Origin: Bdellovibrionota bacterium | GTDB taxonomy: Bacteria; Bdellovibrionota; FAC87; UBA2466; JACKAF01 | Direction: 5' to 3' | NCBI GenBank assembly: GCA_041391485.1 | Contig: JAWKNY010000003.1 | Span: 104,360-168,359, forward strand | Length of the DNA stretch: 64,000 nt | Part shown: positions 500 to 63,768 of the stretch, in pieces | Numbering within the stretch: the stretch's first letter is position 1 | Layout of the letters: each line of letters begins with the position of its first letter | Made by a program: the position numbers and the translations under genes | The notes under the pieces: model-generated | What the model was told of the DNA's origin: nothing | What the model saw: only the letters and a program-made list of their open reading frames with translations | Database searches by the model: none

Positions 500-1556
500 A
501 TGACAACGCTCCACAAGCAACCGGTAGAACCGCTACTTGAACTTCTGCAATCTGCGGAACATGTTTCCGTGGAAGAAGTTTCCTCTTCCCAACCCTCTCA
601 ACGCACCTTCGTACTCAACATTCAGCCAAAGAACACGGGCACTCCCTCAGCCGCACCCGAAGCGGCTCCGCAATATAGCTGCGAGTACCTGATCGAGAAT
701 GCACGCCTCCTCCTGCAAAACGGGGACTTTCTGCTCGCCCAGAATCTCTATTCCCGTTTGCTGCAAAGCAATATTCAGGACGCCGAGGCACTCAAAGGTT
801 TGGGCATCTGTCTGCTTAAACTCGGCGACAGGCCCAAAGCCAAAAGTGCTTCGGGGCTCTGTGGGAGCTGCACGATAGCGAAGAGGCGCTCGTATGGCTT
901 GGCCAGTGCTACTCCAAGGAAGGCGACGATCGGCGTGCGATCCAGACCTTCGGGGGAATCCGTTCCTTGTCGTCGCTTAACGATGACGAGCGGTTTGAGG
1001 TGTTGAAGGAATCCGGTAATTGCTACTTCCGATTGGGGCGCGAAACGGAAGCGCGTGAAGCCTATCTGGGTGCGATGAAGGTTCGACCTGACTCCGTACT
1101 GCTGGAGGTGAATCTAGGCATGGTAGAGCTGCAGTGCCACCGCCTAGACGAGGCCGAAAAACACTTTCAGAGAGCGCTGGAGCTCGATTCCGGGTGCTCC
1201 AAGGGGTACAGCGGATTGGCCTTAGTCGCGCAGGAGCGCGAAGACTTTTTTGTTGCGGAAAAATATTTTACAAAGCGCTCGATCTGGATCCTCTCAACCA
1301 AACAGCGCTTTTGCAGCTTGTGGCACGGGCTCACCGTTGCGGCGAGTTTGCCTCGATTTCGGAACGTCTCAAGCAATTTATTTCCGCGGAACCTGACAAT
1401 GTCGACGTGAACTACGCGTTTGCTACCGTGCTTTTCAAGTGTAGCCGTTGGGCGGAATGCCGGGAAAGATTGCACGCAGCCTTGACCAAAGATCCGCATC
1501 ACCGGCCATCACAGAAACTGAATCGCGAACTCACACAAAACCGCCACCCGGCATAG
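500..1556 (+). pseudogene. TPR-repeat protein interrupted by two frameshifts (three overlapping ORFs 500..1006, 967..1410, 1134..1556)
   Basis: TPR-like 34-aa helical repeats (e.g. ARLLLQNGDFLLAQNLYSRLLQSN, NCYFRLGRETEAREAYLGAMKVRPD, AEKHFQRALELD, KIFYKALDLDPLNQTALLQL) continue across frame changes near 840-970 and near 1250. Confidence 0.5.
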
Positions 1557-1566
1557 GGGAGAGAGC

Positions 1567-2190
1567 ATGATACTAGTCAGCATCGACGACAAAAAGGCCG
1601 AAGTCCTCCCCCAAACCCCTCCCAGCTTGGAGGCTTTTGTGAATGGGATTGTTTCCAACTTGCCTCCCGATCGCGTGGTCACTGAGATTTTTTTGAATGG
1701 TTGCCGTCTTCCCGGCCTTTCACGCCTTTCGGGCTTCGAGTTTGAGTCGGTCGAGGATCTTCAGATCCGAACGGCCAGCAAGCGGATGTGGGCAGCGGAT
1801 GGGGTGGAAAATGCACTGCAGTCCATCCAGCGCCTGCAGCAGAGCTTCTTGAGAGCCACCGAAATATACCTTGAAGCCGACGCCGGAGAGGCGCGCGGCT
1901 GCCTTGCCCGTTGTGTGGACGGCGCTGAGAAGTTTCTGGAGACGATGTGCATCGCTCAGAATGTTCTCGATCTGGATTTTTCCAGTCTCAGTGTCGGAAA
2001 CTCCACGCTCCGACAAACTGAGCTTGAGCTAGTCGGAATTATTCGTCAGCTCAAAGATCCTGCGGTTCTGGCAGATGTCGATGCTGTCGCCGAGCGCGTG
2101 GAGTATGAACTGCTTCCCAATCTTCATGCCTGGAACGCCGCGCTAAAAAAGCTTCAAGAGCGCGCCAGCCGCAGCGTTCTGGAAGATTAA
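1567..2190 (+). CDS. hypothetical protein (207 aa)
   Basis: Clean ORF; RBS-like GGGGAGAG upstream; no recognisable family motif. Confidence 0.4.
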   Translation: MILVSIDDKKAEVLPQTPPSLEAFVNGIVSNLPPDRVVTEIFLNGCRLPGLSRLSGFEFESVEDLQIRTASKRMWAADGVENALQSIQRLQQSFLRATEIYLEADAGEARGCLARCVDGAEKFLETMCIAQNVLDLDFSSLSVGNSTLRQTELELVGIIRQLKDPAVLADVDAVAERVEYELLPNLHAWNAALKKLQERASRSVLED

Positions 2191-18734: not shown

Positions 18735-21700
18735 ATGCGGCTAAAACGCTTAGAATTACAAGGCTTTAAGTCATTTGTCGATCGCACCATTCTGCCGTTC
18801 GAACCGGGAATCACCGGCGTCGTCGGACCGAATGGGTGCGGAAAGTCCAATATTGTGGACGCCATCCAATGGGTGATGGGCGAGCAAAGCGCCAAGCACC
18901 TGCGCGGGGACTCGATGGCGGACGTCATTTTCAACGGCTCGGAGCACCGGGCGGCGACTTCCATGGCCGAGGTGAGCTTAGTCATGGACGCGAGCGGGGT
19001 GAATCTGCCCCCGCACCTTATCCCCATCGCCAAAGGCGATGAGATGGCCATCACGCGCCGGCTCTTCAGGGACGGTACCGCGGAGTACCTCATCAACAAG
19101 ACCCCCGTGCGCCTCAAAGACGTGCACGAAGTCTTTATGGATACCGGCGTGGGGCGCCGTGCTTATTCCATCATTGAGCAGGGCCAGATTGATCGCATGA
19201 TCAACGTGAAGCCCGATGATCGCCGAGGCATCTTTGAGGAAGTTGCTGGAATCACCAAGTATAAGACGAAGCGCCGAGAAGCGGAACGCAAACTCGAAGC
19301 CACTCGCCTCAACATAGAACGTGTCGACGATATCATCCGGGAATTGGACAAGCAGATCCGAAGTTTGAAGATCCAGGCCACCCGCGCCCGTAAGTACAAA
19401 GAGATTAAGGGCGAGCTTGAGAAGGTGGATCTCTTTCTCCTGGGACGTAAGCTTTTTTCCTTGCAGGAAACTCTCAATAGTTTGCAGGAGCAGCGGCTGA
19501 AGCTTCGCGAGGCCCGCTCGGCGCTGGAGACGGAATACTCCCGTTTTGAAGCTCAGTCGAGTGAGCTGGACGTCAAACGTGTGGACCAGGAACGCCTTTC
19601 GCAGACTGTTGAGGTGCAGGAGCGTGAATACACACTCAAGGTCCAGAAGCTTGAGAACCAGCTCGCCCTCTTTCAGCAGGAGCAGCAGCATATCGATCAG
19701 GCACAGCAGGCGCGTGCGCAGGAAAGCGAGGAGCTTTCCAACAAGCTCGTAGAGTCGGAACGCGAAACCGAAGAACTTTCTGAAGAGTTGCAAGGCCTAG
19801 AAAGCGCGCTTTTCTCGTCACGTGAAGCGATCGAGGCGAGACAAACAGAACTCACGGAAGTGCAATCGCGGCTCATCGAGGGTGAAAAAGAGCGGTCCCG
19901 GGCCCAGAAGGAACTTTCTCAGACGACCGAGAAGAGTATCTACCTCGAAAACCAACTCGAGCACGGACGCCAAAAAGAAGAGGAATTCAATGCGCGCAGT
20001 GAGGCGCTCAACGAACGCCTGACCCAATCGGTAAGCGCGCTCGACGCGGCCAAAAAAGCCGTCATTGAAGCGGACGAACGGGTAGCTGAGTGCCAGGAAC
20101 GCGGCCAGCGCGTCGAGAAAGAAGTTTCGGAGCTTTACCAGGAATGCCAGCAAATTTCGTCCAATCTTTCGGAAGTGGAAGATGAGCTTTTCCAAACGCG
20201 TGAGAAGTTTCACGGCATTCGTTCGCGTCTGGAATCTCTAAAAGAGCTTCAGGAGAACCTGGAAGGGTATTCGCCCACAGCCAAGGAAGTCCTGCTGAAG
20301 ATGGAAGTGGAAGGTGCGTTGCCGCTCGCCGAAGCCATGCAACCGGATTCAGACGTAGAAGAGCTGGTTGAGGTCCTCTTGGGCGAAGTCGAGCAATACG
20401 ATCGTCGTGCAGACGGCCGAGACGGCGCGGCTGATCGTTGAGAAAATCCGCGAGAGCCAGTTGGAACGCGTTGGAATTCTTGCGCTGGAGGAAATCCCTG
20501 CAGCGACACCTCAGGTGTGCCCCGTTGGCGCGCAACCGTTGATGGATCGCATTCGGGTCAAGCCAGGTTACGAGGCGGTCGCGCAAAAGTGGCTCGGCAA
20601 TATTTTTATCGTTGAAAACGATGAAACAGTCTTTGCGTTGCGTACACAAAATCCTGAAGCCACCTTCGTGACTCGAGACGCGCTACTTGCGGCCCACGCC
20701 AATCGTACTTTTACCTGTGGAACCACTCCGACGCGTCAGGGAATCTTTGCTCGTCGGCGACAGATCGAGGAGCTTGAGAAGCAGCTGAGCGAGGTCGAAG
20801 CTGAAGTCAGCGGTCTGGCGGCGCGACGGGAAGCCCTCTTGGCAGAACTCGAAACCCAAGAACGTCGCCACGCGGAGATGAAGGACAAACTTAGCTCCTT
20901 GCATGTGGAAGCGGTAGGCTATCGTAAGGAACGCGAAAAAGTTCAGATTGAAAGAGAACGGTCCGAGAAAGAGTACACACTCTTGACCGAAGAGTCTCAA
21001 ACCAACTCCCAGCAGCTGGATGATATCCGTGCCAAACTTGAAAACTGGGCTCAGGAACTCGGCGCCTTCCAAGAACGCAAGGTGGCGATGGAGCAGGAAG
21101 TGGAGCGTCTTGCCCAGGAGTTGGACGGTGCCCGCGAAAAGACGGCAGAAATTCAGAACCTCCTAAAGACTCAGCAGATCGAATATTCCAAGATGGAAGA
21201 ACGCTCAGCCGGTCTGGAAGAGAAACGAAACAGCCTGGAATCGCAGAATAGCCAGCTCCGGGTGCGCGTCGAAAGTCTCGCCAAAAAGACCGAGCAGGAT
21301 CGGGCGCGGCTTCAGTCCATTGAGGACGAAAGCGCGCGTGTACGTGAAGAACGCGATGAGAGTTCCGAACGTCGCAATGAGCTGGTCACACAGCTCTCAC
21401 AGGTGAGAGAAGCCTACGGCATCACCTGCCAGGAACTGAACGAAATTCGCCTGAAGAAGGAAGCCATCCAAGGGGAACGTTCGGCGGCTGCCGATCGCAT
21501 CCAGGAAGTGGAAATCCGGTTGGCGCACGAAGAATCCAATTTTGAACACCAGAAGAATATTTCTCTGGAACGCTACAACCAACAGGCGTCTCCACAGGAT
21601 GAGGCGGCACAACTCAACCTGGAAGAGGTCCCGCTTTTCCAGGGGCAGGTTAAAGACGAATGGCTTAGCCTACCCACCGAGGAAAAAGACGCGCTCATGG

Positions 21701-22332
21701 AAGAGCACGTTGAAAATCTGCGCGCCAAAGTGGGCCGCTACGGTGAGGTGAACCTCACCGCGATCAACGAGTTTGAGGAAGTGCAAAAGCGGCACGATTT
21801 CCTGACCACTCAGAAGTCTGATTTGGAAAACTCTATCAAGATCCTTGAGCAGGCCATTAAGCGCATCGACGAGACGACGGAACGCCGCTTTCGTGAGACG
21901 TTCGAGGGCGTGAACGAAAAATTCCAGGAGGTCTTTCCCATTCTTTTCAACGGTGGAAAGGCAAAGCTTGCTCTCACCAATCCCGAAAACATTTTGGAGT
22001 CCGGGGTCGATATCATGGCGATGCCGCCTGGAAAACGTTTGCAGAGCATCAGTTTGCTGTCAGGTGGAGAAAAGGCTCTTACTGCGGTGAGTTTGGTACT
22101 CGCCATCTTTGCGCGAAAGCCCAGTCCTTTCTGCTTGCTCGATGAGGTGGATGCGCCTTTGGATGAAGCAAACGTCTCGCGCTTTAATACAGTCATCAAG
22201 AAGATGGCCACGAAAAGCCAATTTATCCTGGTGACCCATAACCGCAAAACCATGGATATTGTGGATGCGCTCTTTGGCGTGACAATGGAGCAGGCTGGTA
22301 TTTCCAAGATGACATCCGTACGCTTGAACTAA
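18735..22332 (+). pseudogene. smc: chromosome segregation protein SMC, interrupted by one frameshift near 20400 (ORFs 18735..20441 and 20368..22332)
   Basis: N-terminal Walker A GPNGCGKSNIVDAI; long coiled coils; hinge ...GEVEQYD / IVVQTAETARLIVEK continues in the +1 frame; C-terminal LSGGEKALTAVSLVLAIF...LLDEVDAPLDEANV; total about 1200 aa. Confidence 0.8.
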
Positions 22333-25909: not shown

Positions 25910-26003
25910 TCAAGTGCCAATGCCGAGCCGTGGAAAAAAACGTTCCGATGCAATATCGGCAAAAACTCCGAAAGCCTTGAGGAAATAAAACTAAGGTTGG
26001 AAT

Positions 26004-26076
26004 TCGGGGCGGCCGGATTTGAACCGGCGACCCTCTGCTCCCAAAGCAGATGCGCTAGCCCCTGCGCTACGCCCCG
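26004..26076 (-). tRNA. tRNA-Pro (anticodon TGG)
   Basis: Reverse complement CGGGGCGTAGCGCAGGGGCTAGCGCATCTGCTTTGGGAGCAGAGGGTCGCCGGTTCAAATCCGGCCGCCCCGA folds as a cloverleaf: 7-bp acceptor, D arm, anticodon loop TTTGGGA, T arm GCCGG/TTCAAAT/CCGGC; 73 nt without CCA. Confidence 0.8.
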
Positions 26077-26135
26077 ACAGAGTAGCGCCATATATAGCAT
26101 TCCGGGGACGGACTGCCCACCTTTTTGCGAGAAGC

Positions 26136-46598: not shown

Positions 46599-48517
46599 CT
46601 AGGTTGCACTCAGTCGGTGGGTTTTTACAAATGAGGCCAAGCAGGACAGAGCAAGGACTCTACTGGCGTGCCCTCGGCTTGTTGAATCCGATTCAAACTG
46701 CTGCCAGACCTTTCTGGGCAACTCAGTGTTGATCCCCAGGCCTCTCCACAGTTCCTGGTCCTCTAAATAGGAAAGGAGCAAGTTCCGTAGGGGGCCTCGT
46801 AGCCAAGCGGCCCAAGGGAGGTGGAACCCCTGCTTTTTTCGCAGGTAGATTGCCTTCGGAAGGTCTCCGACAGCGTCGACTAGAAGTGGCTTTGGGTAGT
46901 CCGCAGGGCGTTTCCATTTGCCGGGAACTCCGATCATGTACTCGAGAAGACTCCGACTTAGGAAAGGTACACGGAGTTCCAGGCTGTTCGCCATGCTGAA
47001 GTTGTCGCAGTCCCTGAGAAGAACATAGCGTAAGTAGGTTTGAAGCTCGATGAGAGAAATCTGAGTTTCGGGGGCGAATCCTTGGACACTTCCTCTCAGG
47101 CTCTCTACGAGAGAGTCATCGACTCCGCTGGTGTAGCAAAGAGTGGGAGCTTGCTGCGGAAACGAAAGGTGCTGTTCCCGAACAAAAATCTCGCGCCTCA
47201 ACAACTGAAGATCCACAATGTGACTACGACGGACAAATACGGAGGCCATCTTGTCAGCGTGCATAGAGGGTACTTGGCGCGCCAAAAAAGCTAGTGCCAC
47301 TCGTGCAGGTCCAAAGAGGTTCGAAATTTTTCTCAAGCGCAAGGCCAAGGGGACTTGCCAGAAGGTCGGGTACCCTCCAAAGAGCTCGTCTGCACCGAGC
47401 CCGGAGAGGACTACTTTTAGGCCAGCTTCACGTGCTGCTTTAGAAACCAAAAAAGTATTGAAACCATCTATACTCGGTTGGTCTAGTTTCTCTAGAAACG
47501 TGGGAAAGTCGTCAAGTAGATCCTTTTCCGTGCGTCGAATGAAGTGGTGATGCATTCCAAGTTTCTTCCCCAATTCTTTTGCGAGCCGGCTCTCATCCAG
47601 ATCGGTCTGCTCGAATCCGAGAGTGATGGCATCCAATCCCCTTTGCACTTTGCTGGCAAGGATAGCAAGTGCGCTTGAATCAATTCCACCGGACAAAAAC
47701 AAACCCACGGGTACATCGGAAACAAGGTGCTGCTCCAACGAGTTCTGTAGTAGCTCACGGATGTTCTGGACACAGGTATTTCGATCCGAAGGGATCTCTC
47801 GGTGGTCGGCTGTCGGCAGCTTCCAGTAAGGAGTTGGGGACTCCATTGTTCCGTCTTGGCGAACGAAAGAATAGGTCCCTGGCTCGAGGGAACGAATCCC
47901 CGCCACTAGGGTTTGGCTCCCCCACACGGATCCTTGGGCAAAATAGGAGCTAAGTGCGGAGCGATCGATCTGGCGCTCAATCCAGGGCTCACCTAGCGCC
48001 AGTAGGGAGCGCACCTCAGACGAGAAAAACAATCCTCCTTTGGGTGAGCGATAATAGTACAAGGGCTTTATTCCCATCCGGTCACGACACAACCAAAGCC
48101 TTCGGTGATCGGCATCCCAGAGGGCGAAAGCGAACATTCCTTCCAATTGATGGACGGCTGCGGGTCCCCAGGCCCGATAGGCCTTAAGAATCACTTCGGA
48201 ATCGCTTTCCGTCTCGAAGTGGTACCTCCAAGCGTGAAAGTTTATCTTGTACGGCGCGGAAGGATTTCCCCGTTGTACGTCAACCAGTTCTTGTCACCAC
48301 CCGTTGCTGAGCTGTCTGACATGGGCTGGTGTCCGCCCGGCGAGAGATCAAGGATAGAGAGTCGTGTGTGACCGAGTACGACTGAGGCTGTTTCATTCTG
48401 AATGCTTTGGACGCCTATGTCATCCGGACCACGGTGGCGTAGCGCGCTACTCATTTCATTTACGAGAGGTAGGGCTAGGGCGTTTGAAAGGCCGATGGAA
48501 CCTGCGATGCCGCACAT
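46599..48517 (-). pseudogene. asnB: asparagine synthase (glutamine-hydrolysing), one frameshift between 48194 and 48242
   Basis: N-terminal class-II GATase MCGIAGSIG...RGPDD (91-aa ORF) plus a 531-aa body with FAFALWDADHRRLWLCRDRMGIKPLYY and PP-loop SGGIDSS. Confidence 0.75.
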
Positions 48518-52574: not shown

Positions 52575-53722
52575 GTGAGAACCGCAAATTCCACTAATAG
52601 TACCATCGTGCAGAACACCGCGAAAGTGAACACGGTATTCCTTCTCCCTTCCCTCGAGCTGGGCGGCGCAGAGAAGACTACTCTAAACTTACTTTCCAAC
52701 GACGCGGTGAAGGATCTCAATCCCTCACTTTGGTGTTTTAGAAAAAAAGGAGAACTCTTGTCGGTGGTTCCCGACGAGATTTCAGTATCCGACTTGGAAG
52801 CGTTCACGGCGATTCAAGCCGTGCGAAGTCTTATTGCGAAAGTTCGCTTGAATCGCCCCAGCTGATCGTTTCAGTACTTACACCGGCAAATGTTCTTGCT
52901 GCAATCGCTGTACGCTTGAGTGGGCATTCGTGCAAGCTTGTGGTGGTGGAGCATGGTTCGCTGAAAACAATGCAGGGCGAGAGCGGTGGGCTGGTGCGGT
53001 GGTTACCCTTTCTGCAAAAGATTGCCTATCGACTCGTGGATCGCATCGTGTGTGTGTCGGAAGGTCTAGCAGAAGAAATCTCCAAAGACACGGGGATTTC
53101 AAGAGATCGTTTTGAGGTAGTTTACAACGCGGTTTTGACAAAAGATTTTCATGAACGTGCGAATAGGGCCGTAACGCACGAATGGATACGCAATCGACCG
53201 GAGTGTTTGATCGTGATGGTGGGTAGATTGCATCCAGTTAAGGATTACGAGCTTGCCGTTCGGACGCTGGGTGAGCTGAAACGGCATTTGGATTGCAAAC
53301 TCATCGTGGTAGGTGAGGGCCCGTACCGTTCCGAGCTGGAGAAGCTGATTGTGGATATGAAGTTGTCGGACGCTGTTTCATTGGTCGGCTTTCGAGAAAA
53401 TCCGTTGCCGTACATCGCTGCCGCGGACGTTTTCTTGATGACCTCAAGAATGGAAGCCCTACCGACAGTACTGATTGAGGCATTGTGTTTGAGAGTCCGG
53501 ACGATCTCCGTTGACTGCCCTTGGGGGCCGCGCGAAATTTTTCGGAAACTTCCGGGGGGAGTATTGGTACGCGATCGTACGGTCGGTGCATTGGTGGAAG
53601 GCATCCGTAGTGCCTTAGTGGCAGATAGACCTGAACCGTCGGCCGAAGAAATGGCCGTGTTTGCGGAATCAGAGATTGCTATGCGCTATCAGAAGCTGGT
53701 TCAGCAGCTACTGGATAGATAG
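52575..53722 (+). pseudogene. glycosyltransferase family 4, one frameshift between 52865 and 52916
   Basis: N-terminal VFLLPSLELGGAEKTTLNL (GT4 N-domain) in one frame; C-terminal IVVGEGPYRSELE...LMTSRMEALPTVLIEAL (GT1 motif) in another. Confidence 0.65.
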
Positions 53723-53753: not shown

Positions 53754-54530
53754 TTAATCCCAGCGTGACGCTTTGCGGCCTTCGTACCAGGCCCCTGCCT
53801 CCCTTTGATGCCAGCGGCTCACCACTCCGGGTTCAAAGACTCGGTAGGCTTTCATTCTGAGTCGAGCTTGCAGAGTCGCGAAGAGATACTCGTCCTCATG
53901 CCCCCAGGTCGTTTTGCCTTCATAGATGCTTCCTACAAAGCCGTTCATTTTGAGATAGTCCGACTTGTGAACGCAGAGAAACCCTGTGGCGCGGTTGTCG
54001 TACCAGGGAAAGCTGATCGTTTTACTCGGAGTCTCAAATGAGTAAACGGGTGCGTAAAATTGCCTTGCTTGTATTACGGCGGATCGAATTTTATGGAAGA
54101 TGCGATTCGGAAGTTTGAGATCGACGTCGCAAACGAACACGATTTCGTTCATTCCCACGGATGGATGACGGATCATCTGTTCGATAGCGTTGGATTTGGA
54201 AAAAGTGCCTGATAGGTTTATGAAGACCGTAGAGAAACGAAGCTCAAACAGCTCGACGAAACTCTTGATATTCGGCAAGTCCGTACTCGAATAGTCTGCA
54301 ATTAAGAGGCGGAGGTTGAAGTCACCATTCTTTTCAGAAATATCTTTTAGATTGTTCAGTATCAGCTCCAACATTGCGGCTCGGTTGTACAAGGGGATAC
54401 AGATGTTCACGGTTCCGGTTTTGTTGTAGCGTCGTAGTATTGTGTGATGAAGAACCTGATCGTATCCGGATAGGAGAAAAACGCGTACGTTGCGAGCCAC
54501 GAAGCTGAAAATTTTCTTTATGAGCTTCAA
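53754..54530 (-). CDS. GT-A fold glycosyltransferase (GT2/GT7-like)
   Basis: DVD (DxD) motif FVCDVDLKL and TWGHEDEYLF resembling the WGGEDDD block of beta-1,4-GalT/GT7-type enzymes. Confidence 0.5.
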   Translation of the reverse strand: MKLIKKIFSFVARNVRVFLLSGYDQVLHHTILRRYNKTGTVNICIPLYNRAAMLELILNNLKDISEKNGDFNLRLLIADYSSTDLPNIKSFVELFELRFSTVFINLSGTFSKSNAIEQMIRHPSVGMNEIVFVCDVDLKLPNRIFHKIRSAVIQARQFYAPVYSFETPSKTISFPWYDNRATGFLCVHKSDYLKMNGFVGSIYEGKTTWGHEDEYLFATLQARLRMKAYRVFEPGVVSRWHQREAGAWYEGRKASRWD

Positions 54531-54650
54531 CCTTCCTCTCGGCCGGCCTCAACCATCCGGCAAGGTGTAGGGAGGCGGTTAAGATGCAAGATCTCAGAGG
54601 GTCATCGGCAAAAAAAGCAGTTACGTTAGAAGATTTCAGACTTTCGGCGC

Positions 54651-54897
54651 TTGCCGAGGTTCAGCTCCCCGAAGGGAACGAACCACAATAATGGAGCGGG
54701 TGACGAGGTTCGACCCCGAAGGGAACGAACCACAATAATGGAGCAGACGAGGTTCGACCCCGAAGGGAACGAACCACAATAATGGAGCGGTGACGAGGTT
54801 CGACTCCCGAAGGAACGAACCACAATAATGGAGCGGGTGACGAGGTTCGACCCCGAAGGGAACGAACCACAATAATGGAGCGGGTGACGAGGTTCGA
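54651..54897. repeat. tandem array (5 full copies + 1 degenerate) of a 44-47-nt unit = 3'-terminal 22 nt of tRNA-Gly + constant 25-nt spacer
   Basis: Unit CCCCGAAGGGAACGAACCACAATAATGGAGCGGGTGACGAGGTTCGA at 54667-54713, 54714-54757 (variant GCAGACGAGG), 54758-54803 (1-nt del), 54804-54850 (CTCCCGAAGG-AACG variant), 54851-54897 (last copy is the true tRNA 3' end); partial copy 54651-54666. Confidence 0.8.
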
Positions 54898-54951
54898 ACT
54901 CGCGGCCCTCAGCTTGGGAAGCTGATGCTCTACCAACTGAGCTACACCCGC
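54876..54951 (-). tRNA. tRNA-Gly (anticodon CCC), CCA encoded
   Basis: Reverse complement GCGGGTGTAGCTCAGTTGGTAGAGCATCAGCTTCCCAAGCTGAGGGCCGCGAGTTCGAACCTCGTCACCCGCTCCA; 76 nt; cloverleaf with anticodon loop TTCCCAA. Confidence 0.8.
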
Positions 54952-55190
54952 ACTGAAAGAAATCAGTATTATTTAAGGAGGGTTAACTCAAGCGCCCCCC
55001 GCTTGTCCACTCCAAAATAGTGTCTGGCGGCGCTCCGCCTGCGAAGGGGAGAATTTTAAAGAACCCGTGAATAGGTATTGATTCGGCGCATCAGGGTGGT
55101 ACTGTCTACCTTTGGCATCGCTTGGGGTGGGGCAGCTATGGGTTGGCAACTTCGCACGGCATTTTAAGATCGCATTCTGATTTCCACTAA

Positions 55191-55859
55191 TTGATGTCTT
55201 TGTATGTTTTTTCGGGGGAGAGCATGCACAGGGTTAATCAGAGATACTATGGGCTAGTCGCGTTGGCTTGCTTTGTCTTGGCCGCACCGGCGAAAAGCAT
55301 CGATTTTGTGCGGGACGACAACGGTAACCCCATCGTTCCGCAGTGGTGTGTGCAGTCCTTTTTGAAGCAAGGCCGGCAGAAAGATAAGCCCAGCAGCCTA
55401 ATTCCGAAATCTCACCAACCGCCCTCTGTCCTGCCTCAACTGGAGGAGGGCCGGGCCTGGGTGACCCGCTCTGAGGGCACTTTCCTCAACGCCAAAGCCC
55501 AACTCAAATCCTTGCACCAGGACGGCGTGGAGCTGGAGTTTGTTACCTTAGAGTCCTGGCGAGATCTCAACGTCTTTGAAATTCTCGAAGAAGGAATTCA
55601 AAAAAACGATCCCGACTTCGAGTTGGATCCCACCGATCCTATCGGCGGTGTGTTGCGTTGGATCGCTGGACGTCCCGCGATCATCGAGATTCAAATGCTG
55701 GACGAGTACCACGAAGCTCAACTGGAGCCTTTGGCGCAAGCTATCCGCGCGATCTTCACCGAGACCGAGAATACCTACTTCCTCATCCGTTCTCCCGATG
55801 ACAATTTAGTCACCGAGGTTTTCGGAGAGACCGGCGGACTCACTTCGCTCAACGATTAA
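55191..55859 (+). CDS. hypothetical secreted protein
   Basis: Hydrophobic N-terminal segment LVALACFVLAAPA; acidic C-terminal half; no family recognised. Confidence 0.35.
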   Translation: MMSLYVFSGESMHRVNQRYYGLVALACFVLAAPAKSIDFVRDDNGNPIVPQWCVQSFLKQGRQKDKPSSLIPKSHQPPSVLPQLEEGRAWVTRSEGTFLNAKAQLKSLHQDGVELEFVTLESWRDLNVFEILEEGIQKNDPDFELDPTDPIGGVLRWIAGRPAIIEIQMLDEYHEAQLEPLAQAIRAIFTETENTYFLIRSPDDNLVTEVFGETGGLTSLND

Positions 55860-56345: not shown

Positions 56346-56533
56346 TGGAACGCGAAATCGAACACAGCTTTCAGTGTCCTTACTGCTGGTCCTCTATCTC
56401 TATGTTGCTGGATGCTTCTGTGGGGGAGCAGGCCTATGTGGAGGATTGTGAGCGCTGCTGCCAGCCTATACAGATTCAATTCCACTGTGAGCGGGGACAG
56501 CTGCTTTCTTTTGAGGCCGAGCGGGCGCAGTGA
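56345..56533 (+). CDS. CPXCG-motif cysteine-rich small protein (zinc-ribbon-like)
   Basis: 62 aa with CPYC...CERCC arrangement typical of the CPXCG family. Confidence 0.55.
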   Translation: MEREIEHSFQCPYCWSSISMLLDASVGEQAYVEDCERCCQPIQIQFHCERGQLLSFEAERAQ

Positions 56534-56534
56534 G

Positions 56535-58843
56535 TTAGGCGGCCGTCTCCACGGCGGTGGCGGCGATTAGAATACTTTTTAAACGCTCTCTTTGAGAGTC
56601 GTTCAGGCCCTGCAGGCTGAGCCCGGTGCGGAATTTTTGGGGCTCCAGCTCCCGCGCCCAACAGACAGACGCGATAACCGGGAATAGCCCGATGGATTGA
56701 AGTTCCTGCTCAAGATTCTTATCCGGTCCGAGTAGTCGGATCTGCACGCTCACCTGCTTGGCGAGGTAAGCGTCCATCACTAAGCCAATCCCGGAACTCG
56801 AAAAATCAACGAGCGAGGCAGGGCCATACGAGGTTTCGACTTGAACCGGACAGTTTCGTCCAACGAAAAAGCGCGGATCCTGACGACTCATTCCTTGTTG
56901 GCGGCGGTACTCATCGAGGGCTTGATCGCGTTTTTGTTCATCAAGGTGTTTCGGCGTACATTCGTAAACGGGTTGTGGCGTTTCCAAGTGTTTGATTCTA
57001 ATTTGGCGCAATTTGAAGGCCGCGAGAGCGAAATCCGCGTGTAAACGCATTCGGGTCGACTCGCTCACGAGGATACCGAAACTATCTGCGGCCGACTCCA
57101 ATCGCTTGCAATAGTTCACCCCGTGACCGATGAGCGTGATCTCGATCTTTTTCCCGGTTCCAAGATTACCGACCTGCACCAAAGAGGTGTTCACGCCGAT
57201 CCGCAGGGGGAAAACCGGTCTCTTTTCCGAAATAGCCGATTGCGCCCGCTCCACGGCATCTTCTTGGAGGGCGATGGCGCATTGGATGGCGGTCTCCGCG
57301 TGGTTCTCTGGGGAAACGTCCCCATCGTATGCGTAACCAAAAAAGCAGAGCACCCCGTCTCCTTGGATCTTGTCTACAATCCCGCCGTGGGCGTGGATCA
57401 CTCGGATGATTGCCTGAATCTCATGGCGTAAATGGGCAAAAGCTTGTTTTGGGGGAAACTGTTCGGCGGCGATGGAGAACCCCACGATGTCGATGAAAAC
57501 CGTTGTGACTTCGGTTTCTGTGGGGTCCAAGGTGAACCCGCGCTTGGTGAGCAGTGTCTGCAGCTTTTCGCTCGGGACAAGTCCCTCAGAAAATCCTGAG
57601 TCAGGCGCAGCGTCTTCGCTAAATCACGGCTTGTGAGAGCGAACAAGCTAGCCCCCGTTAGACTGAAGCAACACATGGCTGGAAACCACGGGACGACGAC
57701 AGAGGCGTAAGAAAAGAGCCCGAGGCCCAAAAGAACCAGGGAAAAGTTAATCGCCAAGTAGCTTAACCAAAACCGCACGCCGGTGAGTAGTGTGGCCGTA
57801 AAAAACGCTGGGATACAAAGCGCAAAAACAAAAAGATGGCCGGCGGGCATTCGCCTGAGCCATTGCCCCGTCAGGACACTATTGATAACGGCAGCCGAAA
57901 GAAAACCACCGGGAATGGTGCCAAACGGACTTTCGACCATGTCGGCGTTGCCCGTATAGAGAGCCGGAAGCACCACCACATGGGTCCCGTCGGCGAAAGC
58001 GTCTTCTTTCTCGCCGGACCGCCAGCGTTTGACGGGACCGGAGAGATTGTAGGTGCGTTCATAAAAAGCGTTGGGGTTGGGCAGGTTAACTAATAGCTCA
58101 CTGCCGAAGAGCGGGACGTGTTCTCCATTTACCAGAAGCTGCTCTTCATCAAACTGCACGTCTTTGAAGGCGAGGAGCGGGGCCAGCGGCAGAACCTTGT
58201 CCCCTTGCATTCGAATAAAGGCCTGCAGCGAAAAGTTGCCGTTGTACATGAGATGCCCCACCTGACTCACTTCAGCTATTTGGGGATCGGGACCGTACAG
58301 GGTTCCAGATTGGAGAGAACAAAACGAGGGAACTTCGTTGGCGGCATAGTGTTTGGGATCGAATTCCACTCGATCCGTGCTAAGTGGCGTCCGCCCGGAG
58401 ATCGGCTCGGCCGCCAAAAAACTCCCCACTACAAACCGAGTTCTGGATCCTTGCAGCTTCTGGAGCTGTTCGATACCCGGCCCTTTGGGTAGAGCGAAAA
58501 TTCGGTTCACAAGAACGGAACTGGCTCCCCGTTTTGCGAAATTTTGCAAGACTCCGGACCACTCGCCAATCTCCAGGTCCTCACTTTTTAGGTAGGCAAT
58601 GGCGGAGTCACCCAGCCCGTAGATTGCCAAGCGATCGTCGACACGAGGATCCCGCTTGAGGCGGTGGCGGGTTTGGTACTCCAAGGGGCGGCTAATCTGG
58701 TGCTCTAAAAAGGCTCCAAACTTCGAGCCGGAGATCACTGAAAAAAAGAGGCCCGATAAACTGGCGTAAAGGGCGTAGCGGCGCGCGTTTTGTTCGGTGA
58801 AATTCAGCCATTTTTTCTTCCATGCTTCGTTGGACGCCATCAC
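56535..58843 (-). pseudogene. CHASE2 sensor - class III nucleotidyl cyclase - PilZ multidomain protein, one frameshift near 57590 (ORFs 57398..58843 and 56535..57530)
   Basis: N-terminal TM + CHASE2 periplasmic domain + 3 TM helices (481 aa). In the other frame a CHD cyclase (TTVFIDIVGFS...KIQGDGVLCFFGY) and a C-terminal PilZ-like domain (RFFVGRN...VDFSSSGIGLVMD). The in-frame linker upstream of the cyclase start has no Met. Confidence 0.65.
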
Positions 58844-58986
58844 GTGCTTATCGGCGAATTGCAGGCTTCTCTCAATGAAAGCAATAGTTTATCTAGCAGG
58901 CGGCGTGCCTTTATGAAGCGCTTTTCACATTTGCTTCACGTTCTTTGGGCATAATAAGGAATCTGTAGTTTTTAGAGGGGACGTAC

Positions 58987-61734
58987 GTGAAAAGACTCGG
59001 GTTTTATCGCGCCGCGCGAGGGATCGCGGCCTTAGGGCTTCTTTCAAGTTTGCCTGCCTGCCTTTTTTCCCTTTCCATGCAAGAGGACCTCGAATCGCGT
59101 CCTACGCCTGTGTCCGGCGGTTACGTTCTCGACTATGACAACATTCGAAATGACTGTTTGTACGTTGAAGAATCTGAACATCAGTACCGCGTGACCTGTA
59201 GAGCGGTTGCGGCTGATAGCAACGGAAACGAACACGAGCCCATTTCCATAAGTCCCGGCCTGGAATTGCGCTTTGAGGATCCCAATAGGATCTTCGGATC
59301 GGAATATTCTGTAGCAGACTGCGGTGGCGATACGCTGAAGCGCTGCTACCTCATTGACCTCGACGAAGTGGTTTCTACGAAAATTGAGTTTCCTCTCTCG
59401 GTATCCGCTCCCAATCGGGAACCGCGGACAGAAAAAGAAGAAATCCTCATTCCGTACTCTATTCGTACCATTGGGGTGATGCCCGAGTTTCCCGCCCAAT
59501 ACCGAACCATTGCGCAACAAACGGGAACTACCAACACCGATGCGGGCGTGGTGCCTCTTGTACAGCGTGGCTTTGAAAACGTCGCGCTATCAACGGCGAA
59601 TTTCCCGTCGGAGCTGTACGATATCTGTTTCCGTGGCAACGATGCCTACTTGATGGCGGGAAGTGGCGGACAATACGGTGGCTTCATTTACCGAATCGCA
59701 GGGAGTGTGTATTCGGGGCAGCACCGAATTGGGGAACAGGTGAGTCTGTACGCGGGATCGGTGAACATGGGAAACTACACCGAGTACTCGTCCCGCCTTC
59801 GCATCCGCTTCGGTCAGCAGACTCGAATGGCTTGTCACCCCGATGGGCTCTTGATTGTGGACGAAGCCGAGTTGTCCCAGGATTCGATCAATCCCCGACG
59901 CATCCTTTTTGTACGGGACGAAGGTCCCGTTGAACTTTTGGGGTCCGGCGAGGCGGCAAATTTTCCGCAGTTTACACCGTCCGCTCCGGCAACCTTTGAG
60001 CCCATTTTTCCGGTGGTGGGTACTGATAATAAAATTTACGTAGCCGCCTATGTGAATTCTGAAAGGGAGGAAGTCGGTATCTTCCGAATTCTTGGCAAAA
60101 AGAAAATGCAACGTGTGGGAACACTTGGGAACCAACGTACCATCGGATTGTACGCCGGAATTGCGGTCGATCCGACGACACTTTACTTCGCTCAGGACTA
60201 CGGTCGCGAATTTTCTGTTTTGAATACCGCGACCGGTAGCGTAACAAGTCTGCGCTTCACTCAATTTGAAGCCAACGAACCTCCGTTTCATCTCGGCGGT
60301 AGCTTGGCGAAAGATGCTTCGGGGCGCGTTTACGTTGCGTCCCCTTTCACCTCTGACTGTATCTGGCGACTCAATGGAACACAAAGAAGCCATTACATGG
60401 GTAAGTGCAATGAAGGCGGCTACGCCGGCGACGGAGAAAATTTCTCGTCCTCTGCCATCCGATTGCAGATTCGTAAGATGGCGTTTGCTGGAGAGGGATC
60501 GCTCTACATGACTCATGACGGGGCAGAGACAGGCAGTGGCAACATGCGTCGCGTGGATAGGAACGGTAAGCTCACCACCGTTTGGCAGTCCCGTTTTCGC
60601 CCGGTCACAGATGGGGCGAAGGTGAAACCTGCCGAAACAGTTTTCCATAACATTGTAGACGTGGAGTTGGGACCAAACGGAGAAGTCTATTACGCGGTCG
60701 CGTCTTCTCAATATGGTTACAATCGGATTCGTACGAGGATCGCCCCCAATGGAGTGGTCACCACGTTGGCGGGGGCTCAGACCGGTCCTTATGTAGATGG
60801 CCCCGCCTTGGCAGCGCGGATGGATAGACCCCGTTCGCTGCATCTTGCAACCGATGGGAGTTTGTACTTTACCGCTGAGAGCCTGGACTATGTGCGGCGG
60901 TACCATGTCGAAAACGGTCAAGGTATGGTTACGACCGTGGCCGGTCGTTTTGGCGACGGGCGCTACAATGGGTTCAGTGGAGACGGTGGGCCGGCGGTGG
61001 ACGCGCGCTTCTTCAATGTGAGAGATGTAGTCTCCGATGCTAGCGGCAATTTTTACCTGAGCGATTCGGTGAACACGCGGGTCCGCAAGGTCGATACTGA
61101 GGGGATTGTGACGACGGCTATCGGCGGCCCGTGGAACGGCCCTTGTCTGGGCAGCTGCTTGAGCAGCCCCGAAGGTCTCAGTTTGGATGCCGCCGGGCAT
61201 CTCTGGGTAGTGCAAAAGGGCGTTTACTATGCCAGTGGTGGCCACCGACTCTCCCGCTTCGACATGCGAGACCCGTCGAACCCGCAGCTCGTATACTCCG
61301 TAGGAGACGGTACATCGGGCTTTGCAGGGGACGGAGGATCCGCGCAAGCGGCAAAGCTCAATGAACCCACCCGCATCGCGTCCGATAGCACCGGCCGTAT
61401 CTATTTTGTGGATCAGCGAGAGACCCGTGTCCGAGTGTTAGAACCGTCCACCAACGACGATGGCTCTACCGATTACAGCATCTCCACACTTTTCGGCGGA
61501 TCGTCGGCTGTAGATTGCGGTTCGGGAACCATTGAGGGCTTCAGTACGCTTCTCGATCTCAACGAGCGCATCCGCGCGTCACTTTCCGTTATCTGCGTGG
61601 CGATCATTCGAGGGCTTGATGTGACAGATAACTGCGATGCGGACGGCGGTAGTATTCGCATTGCGATCGCTCAGTGGGCGGCTCTTCAAAACCCCACCAG
61701 CAATATTACCCAGATTACGCGCTCCTGCCGTTAG
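58987..61734 (+). CDS. large NHL-repeat (six-bladed beta-propeller) lipoprotein
   Basis: Lipobox LSSLPAC; repeated NHL-like units (RPRSLHLATDGSLYFTAESLDYVRRY; PEGLSLDAAGHLWVV; PTRIASDSTGRIYFVDQRETRVRVL); 915 aa. Confidence 0.6.
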   Translation: MKRLGFYRAARGIAALGLLSSLPACLFSLSMQEDLESRPTPVSGGYVLDYDNIRNDCLYVEESEHQYRVTCRAVAADSNGNEHEPISISPGLELRFEDPNRIFGSEYSVADCGGDTLKRCYLIDLDEVVSTKIEFPLSVSAPNREPRTEKEEILIPYSIRTIGVMPEFPAQYRTIAQQTGTTNTDAGVVPLVQRGFENVALSTANFPSELYDICFRGNDAYLMAGSGGQYGGFIYRIAGSVYSGQHRIGEQVSLYAGSVNMGNYTEYSSRLRIRFGQQTRMACHPDGLLIVDEAELSQDSINPRRILFVRDEGPVELLGSGEAANFPQFTPSAPATFEPIFPVVGTDNKIYVAAYVNSEREEVGIFRILGKKKMQRVGTLGNQRTIGLYAGIAVDPTTLYFAQDYGREFSVLNTATGSVTSLRFTQFEANEPPFHLGGSLAKDASGRVYVASPFTSDCIWRLNGTQRSHYMGKCNEGGYAGDGENFSSSAIRLQIRKMAFAGEGSLYMTHDGAETGSGNMRRVDRNGKLTTVWQSRFRPVTDGAKVKPAETVFHNIVDVELGPNGEVYYAVASSQYGYNRIRTRIAPNGVVTTLAGAQTGPYVDGPALAARMDRPRSLHLATDGSLYFTAESLDYVRRYHVENGQGMVTTVAGRFGDGRYNGFSGDGGPAVDARFFNVRDVVSDASGNFYLSDSVNTRVRKVDTEGIVTTAIGGPWNGPCLGSCLSSPEGLSLDAAGHLWVVQKGVYYASGGHRLSRFDMRDPSNPQLVYSVGDGTSGFAGDGGSAQAAKLNEPTRIASDSTGRIYFVDQRETRVRVLEPSTNDDGSTDYSISTLFGGSSAVDCGSGTIEGFSTLLDLNERIRASLSVICVAIIRGLDVTDNCDADGGSIRIAIAQWAALQNPTSNITQITRSCR

Positions 61735-61750: not shown

Positions 61751-62149
61751 TTAGTCGAGCGGAAAAACGCAACTGGTGTTGCCGCGGCCGTCTCGTACGC
61801 AGAGTTCGTAAACTGAAATAGAGAGCGTGCGACCGGGCGCTACGTTGGTTCGTACACTAAAATTCCCGCTGTAGCGTCCTCCACTGAGTAGGCTAGGGTT
61901 CTCCACCCAAACTTTTTTGAACTCCCGCTGGTAGCCCGCTTCCAAAGCGATGTTGAGGCCAATGGCGCGGATACCGGATGGATCATTGGCCGCGATCTCA
62001 AGTCCGGCACCAAACTGCACTTCCCAGCACGAAGCGTTTCCTTCTCCGTCCGGGCAAACATTGGCCCAACGGTAAAGAGGTTCGTCAAAGCGAACTTGTG
62101 CCGATTGCTTGTCGAGGGTGGGAGGTGTGCAATCTCCACCGTAAGGCAC
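61751..62149 (-). CDS. hypothetical protein (132 aa), possibly part of a longer frameshifted gene with ORF 61840..62232
   Basis: Mixed composition with 4 Cys; overlapping ORF in another frame upstream; weak. Confidence 0.25.
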   Translation of the reverse strand: MPYGGDCTPPTLDKQSAQVRFDEPLYRWANVCPDGEGNASCWEVQFGAGLEIAANDPSGIRAIGLNIALEAGYQREFKKVWVENPSLLSGGRYSGNFSVRTNVAPGRTLSISVYELCVRDGRGNTSCVFPLD

Positions 62150-62547
62150 AAAGGAACCTGGCAGGTAGCTGTCGGGATTCCTGGAGTGGTCGTAGAATAT
62201 TGGCAGCCGCCTGTCGCGGTTTCAGCACCCACGCCGCGAAGGCCATGAATGTTTGACGAGTAAGGCTAAGTTTGAGTACGTTTTCATCATCCTACCCCCA
62301 GTCGCTACTACTAACTTATTTTTTTTGCCCCCGGTACAGGGCCGCGTCATAGGGGATCGCTGTTCGGGCCGAATTCCCGGTGAACGTTGCGACGCGCGGA
62401 GTCGCAAGAAAGCCGTTGAAGCTTGGGATTTGCAAAGGTAAAAAAAATTGTGGGGGCGTGGGCTATTGATTCCCGCCAAGATTGTACCGAAAAGAATTTA
62501 CGGGCCGAAAAGTTTAAACAGAATTCAGGGGCATCCAGTAAGTCGAA

Positions 62548-62944
62548 ATGATTTTTCAAGGCGTCACTGTTGATCGGGTTCTAAAATCCCTGCTGCCGCG
62601 GGATACGGAGGACCTCGCCATCCTGCGTTTTTTGGTCTATTGCGCTCAGCTCATCCAGCGGGCCGGACACACGGATCTTTCACTCAATCGGGTTGAAGCC
62701 GTCGCTTACCGCGACCCTCAGGTGCCGTCTGTCGAGTTTGATATCCAAAAGTTCATCTCGGGGATGTCGGAAGCCTCCAAGCGCTACTTCTACGGCCTCA
62801 TCGAAGCGGTGGACATCTACCAATCCATTAAAGGCCGGTCCCTGCATTCCGGATTCCTTGGTCGCGGATGATGACCCCACCGTCCACGAGCTACGCCAGA
62901 TCCGAGACATGTGCCTGGACGACGGCCTGCGTTCCGTCTACTAA
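62548..62944 (+). CDS. hypothetical protein, possibly frameshifted (ORFs 62548..62871 and 62693..62944)
   Basis: Two overlapping ORFs in adjacent frames, each with protein-like composition; no family recognised. Confidence 0.25.
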
Positions 62945-63016: not shown

Positions 63017-63768
63017 ATGGACGAAACTCGTTACCCCTTGGTCGTTATTCCCGCCCGTGGGGGTCGTCCCGCTTCCCCCAAAAGCCGTTGGCCAGAATCA
63101 TGGGAAAACCAATGATTCAGCATGTTTGGGAGGTGGCTGCGGCCTCAAAGCGTGTGGCAAAGGTACTGGTCGCAACCGACGATCGGGCGATTGTTGAAGC
63201 CGTGGAAGCCTTTGGTGGCGAGGCGGTCATGACGTCCGTGGATTTTGAAAGTGGCTCCGACCGTGTGGCCTGGGTGGCGGCACAGTGGGGCGCCCAACCC
63301 GATTCGATTGTGATTAATCTTCAGGGGGATGAGCCCTTGCTTGCCCCGGAAGCCTTGGATGGGTTGGTGCAGGTATTGGAAGAGAATCCGGAAGCGCAGA
63401 TGGCAACTTTGGCCGTGAAAAAGCAGAGCGAAGACGATCTCCACAACCCTAACGTGGTCAAAGTGGTATTGGATCGCGGCGGCGAGGCCCTCTACTTTTC
63501 GAGGGCCCCACTCAAGTCGGGGCCCGACTTCTTTTTTAAGCACATAGGCGTTTATGCTTTCCGGTTCGCAGCGCTGCAGAATTTCTGCCGCCTGGAAAGT
63601 AGCCCGTTGGAGAAAGTAGAACGTCTGGAACAATTGCGTGCTTTGCAGAACGGCTTTACAATTCAGGTCATTCCGATAGCTGAAGATACCGTCGCCGTGG
63701 ACGTTCCCGGAGACGTGGGTTTGGTGGAAGAGGCTCTTAAATTGCGTATTGAGGGGAGACATCCATGA
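63017..63768 (+). pseudogene. kdsB: 3-deoxy-manno-octulosonate cytidylyltransferase (CMP-Kdo synthetase), frameshift in a G5 run at 63059-63063
   Basis: ATG at 63017 gives MDETRYPLVVIPAR; after the G-run the other frame continues GSSRFPQKPLARIMGKPMIQHVWE...VLVATDD...NLQGDEPLL (KdsB motifs); TGA overlaps the pyrG ATG (ATGA). Confidence 0.75.

Follow-up and report, generated by a model that had tools for sequence, protein, structure and literature searches.

A tRNA-Gly(CCC) gene in the 64-kb stretch of DNA analyzed here (the window) is followed by an array in which the 3′ end of the tRNA alternates with a constant spacer. This array probably arose when the tRNA 3′ end and a trailer hairpin were amplified locally in tandem, through replication slippage or unequal crossing-over, and not by site-specific recombination. 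Among the points for slippage are that the units lie head-to-tail and in phase, that the array is absent from the closest relatives and that a hairpin is found at each junction.

Results

The 3′ end of tRNA-Gly(CCC) is repeated in tandem

The tRNA-Gly(CCC) gene, with its CCA encoded, lies on the minus strand at 54876..54951 (ARAGORN; Rfam RF00005, 71.6 bits). TRF detects a single tandem array at 54667..54897 (score 411; period 47, 5.0 copies, 93% matches). The array extends 22 nt into the 3′ end of the gene, and its units follow one another head-to-tail in phase with the tRNA 3′ end. Read on the minus strand, the tRNA ends in ...GAGT followed by TCGAACCTCGTCACCCGCTCCA, a 22-nt core that includes the CCA and starts inside the T-loop; the last 22 nt of the tRNA (54897..54876) are therefore also the first copy of the repeated core. 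Each further unit consists of the 25-nt spacer TTATTGTGGTTCGTTCCCTTCGGGG and the core. The preliminary description had placed the array 3′ of the tRNA, which is correct, with the refinement that all of it is on the minus strand, so that 3′ means lower coordinates.

Four additional units, all on the minus strand, could be delimited. Unit 1 (54829..54875, 47 nt) has the consensus sequence, spacer TTATTGTGGTTCGTTCCCTTCGGGG and core TCGAACCTCGTCACCCGCTCCA, and unit 4 (54692..54738, 47 nt) equals it, so that two of the four match the consensus at 100%. Unit 2 (54783..54828, 46 nt) has a variant spacer, with CCC>CC and GGGG>GGGAG changes, and a variant core (CACCCGC>CACCGC). In unit 3 (54739..54782, 44 nt) the spacer is exact and the core carries a 3-nt deletion and a substitution (CACCCGC>CTGC). 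All four of these cores end in GCTCCA. A fifth, exact 25-nt spacer (54667..54691, minus) leads into a degenerate terminal core, AGCTGAACCTCGGCAAGCGCC (54666-~54643, minus, ~24 nt), with about 15 of 22 positions matching; this core (54643..54666), written AGCTGAACCTCGGCAAGCGCCGAA, has GAACCTCG in common with the 22-nt core. The most divergent copy is thus the one at the outer edge of the array, and its junction also differs, GGGG-AGCT-GAACC at the terminus against GGGG-TC-GAACC at the inner junctions.

The exact core occurs three times and the exact spacer four times in the window. Neither was found outside the array in the 64-kb window at up to 3 mismatches (0 expected, from 100 shuffles). The account of a 44-47-nt unit made of a 22-nt tRNA end and a constant 25-nt spacer is accurate by both TRF and the minus-strand reading, and the count of five full copies and one partial copy is right if the 3′ end of the tRNA itself is taken as the first core. 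We also agree that the array is not CRISPR-like: CRISPR arrays have constant repeats and unique spacers, and here both parts of the unit are constant.

Each unit forms a hairpin across the spacer/core junction

A hairpin is predicted at the junction of spacer and core, GGUUCG..CCC[UUCG]GGG.CGAACC, in which the GGUUCG of the spacer pairs with the CGAACC of the next core, the latter arm being T-loop/T-stem sequence of the tRNA. The CCC-UUCG-GGG tetraloop hairpin that had been noted within the spacer is therefore real, but it merely caps a longer stem that crosses the junction. The folding energy is about −14 kcal/mol per unit (z −2.0 to −2.8), and −14.2 kcal/mol for the hairpin of unit 1 (54868..54844). 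The hairpin of unit 2 is retained despite the deletion and the insertion (−14.1 versus −14.2 kcal/mol), and these paired changes, which keep the stability of the hairpin, could hint at selection on structure. At the outer edge, the fifth spacer and the degenerate core form an 11-bp hairpin (54684..54658), directly followed by a second one, UCGGC-AAGC-GCCGA (54657..54644); the pair reaches −24.9 kcal/mol (z −4.4). DNA folding parameters give the same hairpins.

A terminator scan detected no terminator-like site between tRNA-Gly and the array, and none just after the array. Because no such site intervenes, the array is probably part of the tRNA-Gly primary transcript, as its 3′ trailer. Minus-strand open reading frames that run across the array (65-91 aa) were rejected as coding, since a period of 47 is not divisible by 3 and one of these frames has its start within the tRNA. 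The unit was likewise rejected as a truncated tRNA or minihelix; it has neither a 5′ acceptor strand nor a T-stem partner for CTCGT. On the plus strand there are four promoter-like matches (TCGACC-18-AATAAT), which are one 9/12 match repeated with each unit and were not taken as promoters. These weak sigma-70-like matches (54710-54876, plus strand) point to a neighboring gene for a 211-aa protein and are probably a by-product of the repetition. An Rfam search of 54500-55230 at E<=10 returned chance-level matches only (BjrC174, E 1.6; L2 leader, E 6.2).

The nearest relatives lack the array

The neighboring 211-aa gene (55224..55859, plus strand), which adjoins the tRNA-Gly(CCC) gene in the window, was used as the anchor of comparison; its product is 100% identical to the protein R3B54_03765 of a Bdellovibrionota MAG. 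Only two protein clusters are related to its product, with 74% and 77% identity. The 77% relative (L002/L004) has the tRNA-Gly(CCC) gene without a tandem repeat and with a different trailer; in it the tRNA lies 3 kb further from the shared 211-aa gene, with three extra genes between them, two of which encode acetyltransferases. In the 74% relative (L001), no tRNA is found between the orthologous CHGN glycosyltransferase gene and the shared 211-aa gene. The location of tRNA-Gly(CCC) thus differs in all three lineages (L002 6993-10001, window 54530-55224, L001 3902-4184). The preliminary description had raised the prospect of the same array in related genomes; the nearest ones have the tRNA without the array or no tRNA here, which indicates that the array is lineage-specific and would have arisen once this lineage had separated from its closest sequenced relatives.

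The first 74 nt of the tRNA, through the discriminator base, are identical in the window and in L002/L004. The CCA is genomically encoded in the window (54876-54879) and is missing from L002 (6993-7000) and L004, where CAG stands in its place after the otherwise identical tRNA. A tRNA-Pro gene in the window (26003-26077) is also without an encoded CCA. The trailer of the relative contains CCCTTCGAGGTCGAAG, which aligns with the window spacer/core junction CCCTTCGGGGTCGAAC; from this alignment, the T-loop-like TCGAA in the trailer probably predates the array.

In wider searches, the core-to-spacer junction had no match in 185,579 species genomes, nor did the general pattern of a Gly 3′ end duplicated 10-40 nt apart. 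The spacer-to-core junction was absent from JGI metagenomes, and the spacer alone from JGI metagenomes and IMG/VR. Within searchable data, the array therefore appears private to this MAG.

The tRNA lies in a variable polysaccharide region without a detectable integrase

Pfam assigns the genes of the window to, among others, a mur operon, SMC, PPDK, glycosyltransferases, Wzy, AsnB, MBOAT, a deacetylase and kdsB. The gene content of the polysaccharide region around tRNA-Gly differs among relatives on both sides of the tRNA. Further along, a segment of ~5.2 kb (56535-61734) separates a Zn_ribbon_21 gene (56357-56530) from a conserved 177-aa gene; in L002 the two lie side by side. Encoded in the segment are a class III nucleotidyl cyclase-PilZ fusion (56535-57530, minus strand), an unknown 481-aa protein and a 915-aa protein with NHL/teneurin-like repeats.

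No recombinase, transposase or phage gene was detected with Pfam among the translations of 50 ORFs, each 150 aa or longer, between 0.5 and 63.8 kb. Searches with phmmer for lambda Int, the P4-type IntA of E. coli and XerD in 919 six-frame segments (40 aa or longer) yielded no E below 0.22. The earlier statement that the window has no integrase is thereby borne out by both approaches. The search for a second 22-nt core covered the window, which is part of a 243.9-kb contig, and within 54.6 kb downstream and 9 kb upstream there is none outside the array at up to 3 mismatches; the distal att copy that had been proposed is therefore not in the window.

A scan of IMG/VR with the 3′ 21-mer of the tRNA retrieved two viral contigs, each with a complete phage tRNA-Gly(UCC) gene within a cluster of tRNA genes, and found no mobile element with the core as attP. 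The last 21 nt of these viral tRNA-Gly(UCC) genes are those of the tRNA-Gly(CCC) of the window, and both clusters have the order Gly(UCC)-Leu(UAA)-Thr(UGU)-Pro(UGG) (L007 2688-3420; L008 679-1342).

Conserved genes across the window are frameshifted

Comparison with L002 orthologues by tblastn revealed frameshifts in asnB (46602-48517), a GT1 glycosyltransferase gene (52623-53080), two conserved small genes (61754-62229 and 62548-62941) and kdsB (63017-63765), and in the Pfam scan the SMC gene (18735-22332) is frameshifted and split into two ORFs. Several pseudogenes had been put forward as a feature of a glycan island; this does not hold, as SMC, kdsB and the two small genes are frameshifted outside it too. 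Because conserved or essential genes outside the island are affected as well, the apparent pseudogenes are probably indel errors of the assembly. Some of the differences between units, those in homopolymer length (CCC>CC), may also be errors; for the 3-nt deletion and substitution in unit 3 an assembly error is less likely. Describing the copies as old and diverging is accordingly unsafe, given that two of the four additional units equal the consensus, that some variants are homopolymer-length changes and that the assembly is indel-prone.

The E. coli tyrT/tyrV repeats have the same architecture

The E. coli tyrT locus is known for a 178-bp unit present in 3.14 copies. In MG1655, this unit is repeated 3.1 times (TRF; 1205..1763 of NC_000913 1285500-1288500, the segment L009) and overlaps the 3′ end of tyrV (1745..1829 of that segment, minus strand); rttR and tpr are annotated inside this array. 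AATCCTTCCCCCACCACCA heads every E. coli unit, and each unit begins with the last 19 nt of tRNA-Tyr. Among 5,426 E. coli genomes, the number of RtT units annotated at the locus is 4, 3, 2 or 1, and the locus spans 1401, 1220, 1049 and 871 bp, respectively; the E. coli arrays thus expand and contract in steps of about one unit. In K-12, the interval between tyrT and tyrV holds a fourth RtT unit. According to a passage in PMC3318445 that cites Bosl & Kersten 1991, one tyrT repeat unit was shown to encode the sRNA rttR.

The window array resembles these repeats in that its first copy is the 3′ end of the tRNA gene itself, its units are head-to-tail and carry the terminal nucleotides of the tRNA including the CCA (19 nt in E. 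coli, 22 nt in the window), and the array lies in the tRNA 3′ trailer with a partial outermost copy. It differs in its unit of 47 nt, hardly more than one hairpin, as against 178 nt, and in having no credible tpr-like small ORF, its period not being a multiple of 3. The Rfam RtT model (RF00391) has no match in 54500-55230 of the window at E<=10; as a positive control, the same model finds four matches in E. coli, at 133-137 bits. The resemblance to RtT is thus one of architecture and does not extend to homology, in sequence or in structure.

Discussion

Slippage of the repeated unit had been offered earlier as the alternative to integrase-driven accretion, and we favor it on the strength of the in-phase units, the identical spacers and the lack of a recombinase in the window. 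The array could have originated as follows. A stable hairpin would already have been present in the ancestral trailer, its 3′ arm (...CCCTTCGGGG-TCGAA...) resembling the T-loop/T-stem of the tRNA (..GAGT-TCGAACC..), and this similarity would have provided a short direct repeat with copies ~47 nt apart and the hairpin between them. A misalignment may then have duplicated the ~47-nt interval once, after which the 47-bp direct repeats could have been expanded by further slippage or unequal exchange. The inner copies would have stayed identical or nearly so while the outermost one decayed; near-identical inner copies and a divergent outer copy are the usual pattern of arrays shaped by unequal exchange. 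The functional tRNA-Gly would be unaffected throughout, the first core being its own 3′ end, and the array would be transcribed in the 3′ trailer and then removed during 3′ maturation. Copy-number polymorphism and the order of these events are what we infer; the E. coli tyrV array, which expands and contracts, is a precedent. Because the terminal junction differs from the inner ones, the founding misalignment cannot be reconstructed exactly, and a pure slippage model leaves unexplained the encoded CCA that the relatives do not have.

Duplicated tRNA 3′ ends are the usual signature of att sites, and the repeats could on that ground be scars of serial integration and excision, or of tandem accretion, at the edge of a glycan island gained by horizontal transfer. 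As at the tyrosine-integrase att sites of islands and prophages, the 3′ portion of a tRNA gene is directly repeated in the window beside a variable gene region. The polysaccharide gene content does vary between relatives on both sides of the tRNA, GC drops a little at 42-54 kb (0.49-0.52, against about 0.53-0.55) and the encoded CCA sets this tRNA 3′ end apart from those of the relatives. Unlike attL and attR, however, the repeats are 25 nt apart rather than kilobases, with core copies found at the 47-nt distance only, and the window has no integrase, no distal repeat and no mobility genes. The 25-nt spacers are constant and too short to be an element, and because they are identical, different elements are ruled out as their source. 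The viral contigs with the core hold whole tRNA genes rather than an attP, and the IMG/VR scans found no element that carries the core and TTATTGTGG... as attP. A repeat that begins within the T-loop and continues in tandem phase is what slippage predicts. A mobile-element integration scar is thus unlikely, and serial accretion by an integrase at this tRNA, the scenario of the preliminary description, we hold to be highly improbable. The related proposal of an integration hotspot and island boundary stands as far as gene content differs between relatives, but evidence of integration is missing, with neither a recombinase nor a distal core; variable gene content is expected of a polysaccharide locus and needs no integrase.

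The origin of the array by duplication is compatible with a present function, and it is conceivable, though unlikely, that the array is kept as a functional module. The trailer would then yield ~47-nt hairpin RNAs ending in ...CACCCGCUCCA that act in the manner of RtT or a 3′ETS sponge, or the units would be repeated processing or pause sites that tune the output of tRNA-Gly(CCC). Functional tRNA 3′ external transcribed spacers exist, an example being the sRNA sponge 3′ETS-leuZ; the window array is similarly a structured tRNA-trailer sequence that could be released in processing. In keeping with such a role, every unit has a stable UUCG-capped hairpin, unit 2 preserves its stem energy through a deletion and an insertion, the corresponding units in E. 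coli carry the sRNA annotation rttR and nothing resembling a terminator lies between the tRNA and the array. Against it, the nearest relatives are without the array, searches of 185,579 species genomes, of JGI metagenomes and of IMG/VR turn up no other copy of the spacer, Rfam gives no match even at E<=10, the z-scores per unit are modest (−2.0 to −2.8) and the conservation of structure comes down to one variant copy in an error-prone assembly. The more specific form of this idea, a selected RtT-like but non-homologous module whose trailer is cut at each ...CACCCGCUCCA into 47-nt UUCG-hairpin RNAs with an acceptor-like 3′ tail, strikes us as very unlikely, and any function of the array itself is putative at most. 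There is also only a slim chance that mis-assembly or consensus errors created the array, or else the number of its copies and the differences between them. The source is a MAG in which many conserved genes, SMC, kdsB and asnB among them, are frameshifted, so that indel errors are frequent, and several differences between copies are changes in homopolymer length. The regular internal structure, the decayed terminal copy and the unique flanks nevertheless speak for a real array, as does the change in unit 3, a 3-nt deletion and a substitution that is no homopolymer error, and an array of ~230 bp is easily spanned by long reads.

Local amplification of the tRNA 3′ end with its trailer hairpin is thus the reading that we prefer, and it calls for caution in interpretation: a repeated tRNA 3′ end alone is not an att site, and tandem phase, identical spacers and the lack of a recombinase point to slippage, as at E. 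coli tyrT. The many indel errors in this MAG likewise bear on any pseudogene call made from it. If the trailer were indeed cut into 47-nt RNAs, these could be decoys or sponges for 3′-end enzymes (RNases, the CCA-adding enzyme) or for toxins, or a stress sRNA, and tandem trailers built from tRNA 3′ ends would be a recurrent, convergently evolved device. The array provides a second, independent and non-homologous example, in a distant phylum, of a tRNA 3′ end amplified together with its trailer. Should such arrays be frequent, or be made into stable RNAs, they would be an under-noticed source of tRNA-derived small RNAs.
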